In this document: positions 237-60,694 of the stretch, in pieces
Position numbering within the stretch: position 1 is the first letter of the stretch
Layout: each line of letters opens with the position of its first letter
Assembly: GCA_964016885.1 (NCBI GenBank)
Contig: OZ024742.1
Location: 355,446,001-355,510,000, forward strand
Reading direction: 5' to 3'
Source of the DNA: Eledone cirrhosa
Taxonomy: Eukaryota
Length of the DNA: 64,000 nucleotides
The notes under the pieces: model-generated
The model's input: only the letters and a program-made list of their open reading frames with translations
Database searches by the model: none
Told to the model about the DNA's origin: nothing
Position numbers and translations under genes: made by a program

Positions 237-772
237 TATCATAAAACATGCCGAAAGAATCACCAAATAAAATATATACCGTTTCCTCTCCCAATTTGCA
301 TAATTAACCATATAAATAATCAATTAGACCAAGCTATAAGAATAAAGGCTCCTATGAAGAAAACTCCGACAAATAACCGAAAGCAGCCCCTTCGCAGCGG
401 TTACGACGGATTATTTATCGAACATTTCGACAGCATGTATAAATCGACCAGATATACAGTCAACCAAACACAATAAGGTGTAAAATAAACTAGAAGAAAT
501 GTGTACACTTTTCTTCTAGTTTATTTTACACCTTATTCTGTTTAGTTGACTATATATCTGGTCGATTTATACATGCTGACGAAATATTCGATAAATAATC
601 CGCCGTAACCGTCGCGAGGGGGCTGCTTTCGGTTATTCCTCGGAGATTTCTTCATATGAGCCTTTATTCTTATAGCTTGGTCTAATTGAATTTTTATATG
701 GTTAATTATTCTAATTGGGAGAGGAAACGGTATATATTTTATCTGGTGATTCTATAGACATGTTTTATGATA
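237..772. repeat. Spacer-less fold-back (~268-bp arms, centre GTGTACAC at 501-508) of a PLE-type 3' tail
   Basis: Arms are reverse complements with scattered mismatches; the right arm is homologous to 60200-60440, which lies downstream of the HHR at 60072; (TA)n nearby on both sides. Confidence 0.85.
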
Positions 773-990
773 ATTATATATGTATATATATATATATATA
801 TATATATATATATATATATATATATATATATATATATACATATATATATATACATATATATATATACACATATATATATATATACATATATAGTAATAAT
901 AATAAAATTGAAGACTAAAATCCAAAGAGGGCTCGATAAGGAAAATATATATCAAATATATAAGAACCGTAGAGCAAATATTTATTAAAA

Positions 991-1070
991 TAACAGATTA
1001 AAGTTTAAGCAAAGAATCGCTGCTTTCACCCTTAACGGGATCTTCTGAAACTAACAAAGTCAATCTGTAA
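991..1070 (-). ncRNA. Type I hammerhead ribozyme, U4A core variant (element A tail)
   Basis: ACAGAUUG..AGUUU-CAGAAGA-UCCC GUUAA GGGU-GAAA-GC..GC-UU-AAACU..UAAUCUGU; stem I with internal loop. Confidence 0.7.
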
Positions 1071-1980
1071 ACGCAGAACTGGATATATCAAAAAACGTTG
1101 CAACCGGAGGAAGACAGGAAGACGATATTTTGGTTCGTGGTAACGTTCGCTGGCAAAGAACGGGAAAAAACGAATAATACGTCATTAATAGGAGCGGTGA
1201 AAAACAATTACGCGCAAAGACAAAACCACGTTCATGGTATAAAAGAGGTCGTAGACTAATGTTCTCTTAGGTGGTGCATAGAGACGTTCTCTGGCAATGA
1301 ACGAAAAAGCGAAGATAATAAGTCATATGTGGAGCGTGGAGAACAATAGCACGCAAAGACAAAACCACGTAAATGGTATAGCAGAAATCGTAGACTAAAA
1401 TTCTAACTAGGAGACCAAATGAATCTCCGCTACAGAGTTAAGAACAAAGTAAATAAATACAATACAGAAGTAATAGAAACAAATAAATACATACACGCAA
1501 ATACATACATACATACACAAGCATACGCAAAACCTTACCATGGGTATACAAAACCACGCACATATAAATATGTGTGTGTGTGTATGCGTGTGTACAAATA
1601 AATAAATAATTATATAAACGTATATAAGTAAATAAATACGTATATAACAAGCGCACACGCATATCTAGATATAAATACACGAATGTTCGGAGACGTAAGT
1701 CAACTAAAACAAGAAGTACACATATACACACACCCACCATACGTACGAACCTGCACACTCACGCGGACGCAAATCTCCCGTATACACATAGCCAAACCCT
1801 AAATACCAGAATATGTAAAAATTATACTCTATAACAGTCAAATATACGTACGAGAAGGTATACATACCTTCACAAAGCATACGGGTAATATATACTTACC
1901 TATGCAAATAAGTAAAGGAATAAACAAAACATATACTTAGCTCCCACATCAAGACGTAAAATATCCACGTATAGATCGTG

Positions 1981-2916
1981 CTATCCGTTAGGGTATAACG
2001 TGGGGCTGTAATACAGGAAAGTGTTGTGCAATTTATGTTTACAAGCCGAAATTGCCTCAGATTTTTTGTTTAAGATGTGGTCTGTAAGGTAGAGTATTTC
2101 CAGGGCCTCAGCGGCGCAGAGGTCACATGGTCTTTTATTTCCGTTATACGATCTAGCCCTAGCTAGGATCTCCCAGTGTAACTTATATCGGGTGCGGTTG
2201 TCTTTTATACTCCAGATATAAGCTGAAAGTGACGTCATATTCCTTCTTAGAGGGTAACGAAAAGAATGGGTATGCATGTAAAGACGCTGCTTAAAACTAT
2301 TGGCGGTTAACCCTATGTAGGCCCTACGGGACGTGGGTGTTACAACCTTACATTTGTAGACAATGTTACTAGAGAGGCATTTCCCGTATAGGGGGCAATC
2401 AGCCCGATTCCTCCAATTACAGTTAGTACTAACTACAGGGTTGCACGTGTTCCTACGGGTAGGTAGTTTAGCTAAATTTGAAGCTGTGATGTTATGTGCA
2501 AGGTTAGGAGTCGTAGAGTAAGTAATTTTAATAGTATTTCTATTAAACATTTTACTATATTTATGTGTAGGGAGAAAATACTTCGTAATAAGGGAAAGAA
2601 AGGTCTTAGCTAATAGTGTGGCCACCTTCATATTATATGGTGGGTTAAACCAACAAATGCGACGGGATCTATTTCTTCTAGGTCTATTTTCGTACTCTGT
2701 ATATGCTACCTTATCGACAAATCCACTTCGAGCAAGATCTTCATTGTAATAAGTGGAATGGTCATTGAAAATGCGCTCGTTGGTGGAAAGACGGGAAAGC
2801 CTCAACGAAACGTTTCTTACCAGGTTTTTGGTTATGCTGGCAGGATGGTTGGAATGCTTACTTATGTAATTAAGCGTATCATTCGGTTTACTATACAGGT
2901 AATACAACCCATTCAA
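1981..2916 (-). pseudogene. PLE C-terminal RT thumb + GIY-YIG endonuclease (5'-truncated)
   Basis: WFNPPY, C-x-W(C)-x5-CPL-x-GKC, IVY...YIG, FKQR..H, CDLC..E, LNKKSE..S.CKH motifs. Confidence 0.9.
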
Positions 2917-2994
2917 TAAATTGAGGGCTTTTCGGAAAATTGGATTTGTGATCCTTCAGGGTGAAGTGGGGAGAGATAGGGTCCAGAGGTTCGA

Positions 2995-59230: not shown

Positions 59231-59543
59231 CATACAGACCATATATATATATATATATATATATATATATATATATATATATATATATATATGTATATAT
59301 ATATATGTGTTTGTGTGTGTATATATGTGTGTGTGGGTGTGTGTTTGCGTGTGTGTGTGTGTAATGTCTGTGTATATTACAACCTAGGGCATATTTCCAG
59401 CGTTATTCTACCAAATTCCAAAATATTGCAATGCTTTCACAGCAATATTCGCCACCTTTACAATTGTATCATGTTGTCATAATCTATTATTCATATATTG
59501 TAGCTACTTTGAAAATTGCAAACTTGATTGTCATCACACATTA

Positions 59544-59582
59544 TGAACCTGAAGATTGCGAAAGCATGAAAGTACTTGTTCA
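59544..59582 (+). ncRNA. Minimal type I hammerhead (39 nt)
   Basis: UGAAC-CUGAAGA-UUGC GAAA GCAU-GAAA-GUAC-UU-GUUCA. Confidence 0.8.
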
Positions 59583-60071
59583 ATTAACATTTAACATTTA
59601 ATATTCTACCATACTATTTCATTCTAATACCATTATAAATTTTAAAGGATTGTAAATAAAACGAGTAAATCAGATAAGTTGGAATTCCTTTTATTAATAT
59701 AATCTTCTATACACAATCATACACACCCGTGTATATTTATATATATATATATATATATATATATAGTGAACAGTTGCAACACATATATATATATATGTAT
59801 AAGTGAACAGTTGCAACACATATATGTATCCTTCATTTAATTTAATTTTATTTTATGTATGTGATAACCTCTATATTTAATAATCTCCCTATCGGTTGAG
59901 ATTAAATTTGGCGATATATGGCTGCGCTTTCTAGCAGCATGCCTACCCGCCGTAAGCGACCAATCACACGCTTTCTCTCTGGCAGGTACACAGCTACATA
60001 GCGATCTTAGCCATGTTTGAATCTAAATTTGGCGGGGTCGGTCTGAGAAATTAAATGTCTATTTCTGAGTT

Positions 60072-60152
60072 TATCTCCTGATGATAACCTGACTCAGGGC
60101 AACTCCATATTATTTGGATGCCCTAAACAAGGAAGAAACCATGGTAGAGATA
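60072..60152 (+). ncRNA. Type I hammerhead with extended stem II
   Basis: UAUCUC-CUGAUGA-..AGGGCA..UCCA/UGGA UGCCCU..-GAAA-CCAUGG-UA-GAGAUA. Confidence 0.8.
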
Positions 60153-60436
60153 TAATTACGGTATGTGCGCATTTCTTCTAAGTTTAATTTTACTACTAAT
60201 TACGTGCGGTTGACGATATATTTGATCGGATTCTGCATGCTGCCGAAGTGTTTGATAAGTAATGGAACGGAGTTAACGCGAACTGGCTGCGATCAATTAT
60301 TTGTCGGAGATTTCCCCGTTAGAAAATTTACTCTTAAAGCTTGCTGGATTTGATTATGTATATGGTTAATTATGCTGATTAGAGGAAGAAATAGTATATA
60401 TTTTAATATCTAGTTGATTCTATAGACATGTTTTAT

Positions 60437-60694
60437 GATATATATATATATATATATATATTTATATATATATATATATATATATATATATATATATATA
60501 TATATATATATATTTATATATATATATATATATATATATATATATATATATATATATATATATATATATATATATATATATATATATATATATATATATA
60601 TATATATATATATATATATATATATATATATATATATATATATATATATATATATATATATATATATATATATATATATATATATATATATATA
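60437..60694. repeat. (TA)n microsatellite (one of more than 30, e.g. 17949-18126, 18442-18622, 42027-42390)
   Basis: Direct reading; source of the YIYI ORFs. Confidence 0.95.

Follow-up and report, generated by a model that had tools for sequence, protein, structure and literature searches.

We analysed a 64-kb stretch of the Eledone cirrhosa genome (assembly GCA_964016885.1, contig OZ024742.1, positions 355,446,001 to 355,510,000 of the forward strand; hereafter the window), which lies within a 3.0-Gb assembly and in which the catalogued Penelope-like elements (PLEs) and hammerhead ribozyme features cover ~40% of the sequence. Each family of these elements has two fixed outer ends, here called S and L, that lie ~70-165 nucleotides (nt) apart. 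The insertions of a family usually consist of two inverted arms with their 3' ends outward, one arm ending at S and the other at L. All 142 same-family pairs that we typed, from eight families, combine one S end with one L end, and no pair with two S or two L ends is left. We consider it probable that programmed twin priming at two fixed reverse transcriptase (RT) start sites produces this pattern, since this reading fits all the observations with the fewest added steps.

A first-pass annotation of the window had listed 13 features as pairs of inverted arms pointing outward, the left arm on the minus and the right arm on the plus strand. Comparison of the window with itself recovered inverted pairs at all 13 places. 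Outward polarity was supported by the direction of the open reading frames (ORFs) at 893-5771, 28434-31860, 43466-47553 and 53800-58595, and by a hammerhead in the copy itself or in its family for the array at 39633 and for the features at 53800, 18130, 34376, 24935, 237 and 17472. At 12945 and 17040 it followed from identity to the 3' end of family A. The weakest case is 16546, where a degenerate hammerhead-like fold was judged by eye. Note that hammerheads were located with a custom pattern scan, which gave 0 matches in 5 shuffles. The right arm of the feature at 28434-31860 was found to extend to ~31920.

The same annotation had proposed that inverted insertion is the default outcome, and this held in family C. 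A 30-mer probe from close to the 3' terminus of this family had 1,836 exact matches (27,825 and 5,412 for the family A and family F probes), and the first 100 in positional order fall into 64 loci, all of which were retrieved and searched for second arms by BLAST. Copies were opposed in 29 loci, all with 3' ends outward; the polarity is therefore non-random ('-+' in 29/29 opposed clusters, P 4e-9). The other 35 loci looked one-directional; among them, BLAST found a second arm in 19, four carry a micro-arm of ~10-26 bases of the missing end, two are ambiguous, two have an arm of another family, and eight have none. Thus, 52 of the 64 loci clearly possess a same-family inverted arm, the 4 micro-arms included, and up to 56 may do so. 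For other families, opposed neighbours within ~10 kb were counted by eye among the first 100 matches listed, and the ratios of outward to inward neighbours were 19:3 (A), 30:1 (F), 20:1 (D), 19:1 (G), 11:0 (R) and 15:0 (K). Inward cases would be expected where neighbours share a TA tract.

We then typed the ends of the arms. In family C, S and L lie at unit positions 4035 and 4199, both running into (TA)n. The typed set comprised 40 loci of the positional sample together with 15 taken from the best matches and the window, and 55 of 55 pairs were S+L (29 SL, 26 LS), with 5/5 more. Family D gave 14/14, plus 4 further pairs. Six other families supplied 64 pairs (A 10, F 9, R 14, K 9, H 15 and G 7), 62 of them directly typed; the two that were called 'SS' reflect a diverged tail and a locus edge. 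Arms had earlier been described as stopping at different AT-rich points of the tail before merging into (TA)n. The merging stands, and the arbitrary stops are replaced by a pair of fixed sites in each family, of which each arm uses one. Six family C loci, three mixed-family pairs and the family D locus L316 were left out of these counts; L316 was called 'SS' and is read as a double insertion whose right-hand member may carry an L micro-arm of 6-7 bases.

The outer ends also carry marks of their own. A stutter of 7-9 nt was found at S in 22/72 outer ends, compared with 1/70 internal S sites (P 1e-6), and at L in 3/72. In family K, a (TC)n run abuts S in 6/12 S calls among those listed (one mis-call), and L ends show it in 0/13. 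Nearly all ends run into (TA)n, as had been described for the window, where three features (16546, 17472 and 34330) meet (TC/GA)n first. The proposal that TA microhomology sets the start of the complementary DNA (cDNA) is not supported, as shown by the fixed sites, by the 0-7 letters that fixed ends share with (TA)n (most share 2-7, and the K-family S shares none), and by the ATATA/TATAT sites of the family C unit, 37/38 of which are not regular ends and among which L does not occur. Microhomology may aid annealing; it does not select the site. The statement that insertions lack a target-site duplication (TSD) is not supported as worded, as direct duplications were found in L037 (1/55 in family C) and L330 (1/58 in five other families), 2/113 in total. 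Six weaker matches in family C either did not stand out from the 4.7% background or fell in repetitive flanks. TSDs would mostly be hidden elsewhere because the flanks are pure (TA)n, and the duplications in L037 and L330 suggest that nicks can lie tens of bases apart. Flank interruptions hold one strand orientation in 14/17 cases; the inverted flanks of the family C loci L088 and L105 are read as neighbours of another family.

The two arms of an insertion appear to derive from the same template, as the annotation had supposed. The arms overlap in 39 loci, and there they showed 80 differences from each other over 23,627 bases and 282 from other loci, and 119 minority variants were shared between the arms while 80 were discordant. 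The inner ends lie 5 nt or less apart in 7/57 loci, against 0.6 expected. At 58 scored junctions, we found microhomology of 1-4 nt in 31, blunt joints in 2 and insertions in 25, some of the last being copies of nearby sequence. The expected junction microhomology is therefore present in 31 of 33 insertion-free junctions, whereas 56% of random joins are blunt. The S arm extends further 5' than the L arm in 27/58 loci, the reverse holds in 26, and the L arm is tail-only in 11, so that neither arm can simply have been copied from its partner. The lengths of the two arms correlate weakly (rho 0.19, P 0.15). More diverged arms are no more asymmetric (rho -0.13, n=35), and arms without any difference are already asymmetric.

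Two candidate patterns of inner ends were rejected. A pile-up of L arms at S amounts to 4/58 within 25 nt and is not claimed. Nor is the hammerhead cut the usual inner end, as the predicted cut coincides with the end of one family C arm (L070), and in family F the hotspot sits ~120 nt upstream of the cut in that family. This hotspot is an observation in its own right: family F arms stop ~257 nt before L in 9/24 mapped loci (L174, L179, L180, L182, L185, L189, L192, L194 and L195), even where the partner arm stops elsewhere, and yield palindromes of ~430 bp that resemble miniature inverted-repeat transposable elements (MITEs) and have differing junctions. It may be an RNA 5' end or a fold-back hotspot. 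Similarly, most family H copies (L251-L270; window 16546-16740) are S+L fold-backs of 160-225 bp that stop near one site, apparently within a hammerhead-like stem II loop, and almost every copy has a junction of its own. The tandem units within L070 differ at 12/951 positions, and such unit differences do not separate a circular from a linear template.

Twin priming was reportedly first modelled for L1 by Ostertag and Kazazian in 2001. In the version that we favour, the RT-endonuclease protein would bind the region of the RNA formed by the 3' pseudo-long terminal repeat (pLTR) and tail, and would nick the two strands within or close to (TA)n. Of the resulting DNA 3' ends, one would then prime cDNA at L and its counterpart at S, which lies ~70-165 nt upstream in the shared template, and slippery initiation would leave stutter repeats and micro-arms. 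Both cDNAs would extend toward the RNA 5' end over independent distances, the L copy displacing the S copy in the overlap, and the inner ends would be joined through 1-4 nt of microhomology or short templated insertions. An ordinary-looking 5'-truncated copy would be the limit case, with one arm only a few bases long. Nicking, the order of priming, the use of a single RNA, strand displacement and the joining pathway are what we infer from the observed geometry, fixed ends, S+L rule, shared variants and junction signatures. The earlier idea that two 3'-OH ends each prime a cDNA is accordingly retained as the best model, without its priming by TA microhomology. Of relevance here, the Anolis PLE Poseidon nicks and extends both strands in vitro, and its RT starts at two sites bounding the tail (PMC11167929).

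Fold-back followed by deletion, which we regard as unlikely, would have the L-primed cDNA copy itself, be cut or stop at S and join (TA)n, with the unstable centre of the palindrome then deleted asymmetrically; it extends the self-priming idea (PMC3846280) and a remark on endonuclease (EN) action, 'EN-mediated resolution' (PMC8557442). Such a course accounts for S+L pairing, shared variants and the near-equal inner-end excess, as well as for microhomology, templated insertions and the family F hotspot, which falls at a palindromic hexamer. However, it needs deletions in at least 27/58 loci, many ending 10-164 nt from L and sparing kilobases on the opposite side. It gains no support from age, with zero-difference arms being already asymmetric; moreover, the stutter contrast at S is simpler as initiation, and sites equivalent to S do start RT in vitro (PMC11167929). 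It is quite improbable, in our judgement, that two RNAs or ribonucleoproteins act, one per DNA end, within an asymmetric complex that assigns S and L to opposite sides. Overlapping arms would then require no strand displacement, and the three mixed-family pairs and the differing tandem units of L070 would be at home. Yet the two arms resemble each other far more than they do other copies in a family with 1,836 exact matches, and the excess of equal inner ends speaks against independent RNAs; the mixed pairs are rare, do not follow S+L pairing and may stem from deletions that later joined neighbours.

The mechanism of the first-pass annotation, in which any break in (TA)n is primed wherever the tail offers TA microhomology, has become very improbable. 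It draws on the 2-7 letters that most fixed ends share with (TA)n and on the entry of nearly all ends into (TA)n, but each family uses two sites, L and 37/38 of the ATATA/TATAT sites are at odds with it, the K-family S has no shared letters, and a free choice would yield SS and LL pairs, which the S+L counts largely refute. That the palindromes are artefacts of assembly or of chimeric fold-back reads is scarcely credible. Palindromes and (TA)n do assemble poorly; nevertheless, the ends are fixed, family-specific and complementary, the arms of old copies have diverged by up to ~20%, and identical strand-switch joints occur in three independent libraries. Raw reads from three samples of one restriction-site-associated DNA (RAD) study contain family C strand-switch joints. 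One such joint is covered by 54, 64 and 34 reads in the three samples, which share a single start position per sample, the norm for RAD. The raw-read joints include tail-only arms, and in both reads and contigs S and L are where the element gives way to (TA)n.

Several points weigh against programmed twin priming as the general explanation. Eight of the 64 family C loci lack a second arm and two are ambiguous, and, with probes placed near the 3' end, arms that start far from it are under-sampled. One arm ends at neither S nor L in the family C loci L031, L046, L048, L053, L060 and L062. Where a family C arm is paired with one from a different family, the ends were LL in L050 and L084, and SS in L077; arms of different families had been named as evidence against the first proposal, and these three stand beside the 142 same-family pairs. 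Insertions were scored at 25/58 junctions, some inflated by adjoining mismatches, and three loci were unscorable. Near-perfect palindromes are confined to short arms (up to ~650 nt), which fits fold-back too if long perfect palindromes are lost, and fold-back or gene conversion would explain the shared variants just as well. For the window copy of family C, reads bridge neither the junction nor an empty site. Finally, the Poseidon study found the start site not to differ between the strands (PMC11167929), so that strict S+L pairing is not predicted by that work alone. As to the mixed joins, family C arms are directly joined to arms of F, F, A and J in L050, L084, L077 and L085, respectively (the J arm in the same sense), with 1-4 nt of microhomology in L050, L084 and L077; these joins may reflect in-trans priming or later deletion.

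The elements are Penelope-like retrotransposons with Hydra-clade motifs, accompanied by non-coding hammerhead arrays. Family C (43466-47553) is young, and its unit, as seen in a natural tandem copy, measures 4199 bp and holds an ORF of 820 codons (L037:4875-7334). In this unit the tail precedes the ORF, as in a partial tandem (pLTR), and 5' truncation is also seen. The encoded protein, P0001, carries YRDD in a telomerase-related RT domain; in its AlphaFold model (predicted local distance difference test, pLDDT, 87), the top three PDB fold matches were TERT, with TM-scores of ~0.3. All fold matches listed were polymerases, and the GIY-YIG endonuclease was recognised at the motif level only, with Y699, Y712-G714, R723, E782 and N795 conserved among 103 aligned sequences. 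One homolog has PF01541 (GIY-YIG). DKT and RWR are present in P0001, and in 101 and 94 of the 103 sequences. The alignment also conserves C678-C680-C686 (CxCx5C linker), C776/C779 (CxxC) and C804/H806 (CxH), and a loose CCHH pattern matches 12/103 sequences, the alignment being without CCHH-bearing references. Among 120 matches listed, the only species-named homolog was from Argonauta (39% identity). Pfam returned nothing significant for six window ORF fragments, and a PDB sequence search with the alignment gave 0 matches. Families A, B and D have ORFs related to that of family C, and family F has the same endonuclease motifs. Separately, asparagine-rich, disordered inserts occur in P0001 (residues 486-533 and 630-673) and in the ORFs at 28479 and 62616; they resemble the N-rich inserts of rotifer Penelopes (PMC3846280).

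Families R, G, J and K are tandem hammerhead families; the window array of family R contains 5 motifs, and no ORF of 150 amino acids was seen in it. Family H was placed with neither the PLE families nor the hammerhead arrays. By the pattern scan, hammerheads are present in families D and F and a core variant in family C, and none was found in families A or B; an Rfam scan at the gathering score gave no hammerhead match. The predicted family C hammerhead (L037:4583) has C in place of the usual U of the CUGA turn, and this letter lies within the 1,836-match probe. Folding of the tails gave stabilities against shuffles of z -2.6 in family C and z -2.2 in family R and weak values in six other families, and showed no shared tail structure across the eight families.

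Along the window, the first feature is a fold-back of family G (tandem hammerhead, non-coding, unit ~660 bp) at 156-775, with approximate ends, a minus arm at L, a plus arm at S and an inner junction at ~502-507. The family A PLE follows, its minus-strand left arm (893-2993) ending at L with an 88-nt tail and the 3' part of the ORF, and its plus-strand right arm (2994-5773) ending at S and running from RT to endonuclease in a broken frame. Small fold-backs with an arm on each strand come next. The family A copy at 12932-13072 has a minus L arm that is almost entirely tail and a plus S arm. In three others the S arm is on minus and the L arm on plus: family H at 16546-16740 (S beside (GA)n, inner stop recurrent in the family), family A at 17042-17250 and the family F PLE at 18128-18443 (hammerhead at 18225 in the S arm). 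The family K fold-back at 17472-17950 (tandem hammerhead, unit ~1.3 kb) pairs an L end with an S end that has a (TC)n run. The family J tandem hammerhead array (24935-25900, unit ~430 bp) has its minus arm at S and its plus arm at L. The family B PLE has a short minus left arm (28434-28561) ending at S, typed from the window copy alone, and a plus right arm (28562-31920) with the 3' part of the ORF, a long 3' region and a tail to ~31920 (L); it is old and probably interrupted.

In the right half of the window, a fold-back at 34330-34762, typed from window copies alone, has L on minus, S on plus and a minimal hammerhead at 34612 (+). The retrozyme-like array of family R (39633-42030, unit ~556 bp) has S on the left and L on the right, three minus and two plus hammerheads, and a junction at 40931-40935. 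The family C PLE comprises a minus left arm (43466-46329), which ends at L with a 164-nt tail and contains the 3' half of the ORF, and a plus right arm (46328-47553), which ends at S and has 1 mismatch to the left arm in 1210 compared bases. The minus left arm of the family D PLE (53800-57235) ends at L with a ~72-nt tail and holds an ORF from RT to endonuclease and a hammerhead at 53968; its plus right arm (57235-58595) ends at S. A plus-strand family G unit at 59790-60440 (start approximate) has an intact hammerhead at 60078 and ends at S, with no inverted arm seen. An additional PLE 3' part on minus (62380-64000, lower bound approximate) leaves the window.

Further repeats surround these features. 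Fold-backs outside the earlier list lie between (TA)n runs at 43081-43445 and 53476-53738, with unequal arms. A repeat adjoining the family B end (31923-32044), which is presumably of the short interspersed element (SINE) type, is an old head-to-head fold-back, and its family has other window copies at 10975, 13874, 20161, 25997 and 42401. Fragments of another element resembling long interspersed elements (LINEs) occur at 6380-7568, 58793-59227 and 12755-12946, and we take them to be of the RTE type. Direct duplications of ~300-340 bp with 92-93% identity flank (TA)n runs at 26698-27558 and 47614-48454. Insertions are piled up side by side through common (TA)n runs in L316 and at window positions 119-5771, 43081-47553 and 53476-58790, and some entered a (TA)n tract within the 3' region of family D itself. 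Since two (TA)n tracts are left per insertion, targets may multiply. In marine metagenomes, two relatives (L356:704-904 and L371:401-576), whose far ends are missing, have an inverted arm flanked by (TA)n that lies upstream of the ORF. The 77 metagenome relative loci are mostly collapsed single units, and 19 have some inverted repeat.

We tentatively suggest that two-site twin priming might be the intrinsic way in which endonuclease-bearing PLEs, and the retrozymes they carry, integrate, the tail being a spacer between hard-wired RT start sites, one per strand. If so, every insertion would begin as two cDNAs, routinely giving rise to de novo palindromes and MITE-like fold-backs, and telomerase-like slippage at initiation would seed new simple repeats. 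One insertion signature connects autonomous PLEs with retrozyme arrays, and as a large source of palindromes, such insertions risk misannotation as MITEs or dismissal as assembly errors. In titles and the beginnings of abstracts, we found no proposal that PLEs use twin priming at two fixed sites; one might exist in Arkhipova 2006 or in Evgen'ev and Arkhipova 2005.

The geometry as such is not novel, as two papers already describe targeting of (TA)n, copies that are inverted and 5'-truncated, and a tail restricted to one end (PMC8557442, PMC3846280). Hydra-clade PLEs insert into (TA)n as tandem and inverted 5'-truncated copies, often with the tail at one end, and the mechanism was left open there (PMC8557442). 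Our elements share with them DKT, RW[KR], CxCx5C, CxxC, CxH near the end, (TA)n insertion and, in some families, hammerheads. They differ in the family C unit (4.2 kb, compared with a tendency to generally <3 kb), in tails of ~70-165 nt instead of 30-40, and in that the one-end tail is here a strict, counted S+L rule and the inverted form the majority. The origin of tandem and inverted PLE structures is named there as an open problem, which the S+L rule makes sharply testable. The self-priming model for Penelope inverted repeats, from a study that also noted the tail on one inverted pLTR (PMC3846280), yields the same head-to-head structures and addresses junction palindromes; it predicts that one arm is copied from the other, and 27/58 loci would need an extra deletion step.

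Poseidon of Anolis resembles our elements in AT-rich nicking, extension of both strands, two tail-bounding RT start sites and no requirement for hammerhead cleavage; it belongs to a different clade and primes without homology, and its main text does not treat inverted insertions or the pairing of sites with strands (PMC11167929). Non-LTR (long terminal repeat) retrozymes likewise consist of tandem non-coding units with type I hammerheads and a proposed PLE mobilisation (PMC7229834; bioRxiv 10.64898/2026.07.22.740005), whereas the arrays here follow the S+L inverted geometry of autonomous PLEs, the word 'inverted' being absent from PMC7229834. In L1 twin priming, both nicks prime one RNA, giving a head-to-head inversion with a microhomology join and an internal deletion or duplication, as here; L1 uses poly(A) and a chance internal site, while our families use fixed sites without poly(A), as the majority outcome (bioRxiv 10.1101/2024.08.27.596794). 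Because both start sites are fixed and close together, long palindromes result, unlike in L1. The pattern thus works like L1 twin priming and is not an instance of it. The element class and its geometry are known, and the strict, countable end rule is the new part, which points to a specific mechanism.

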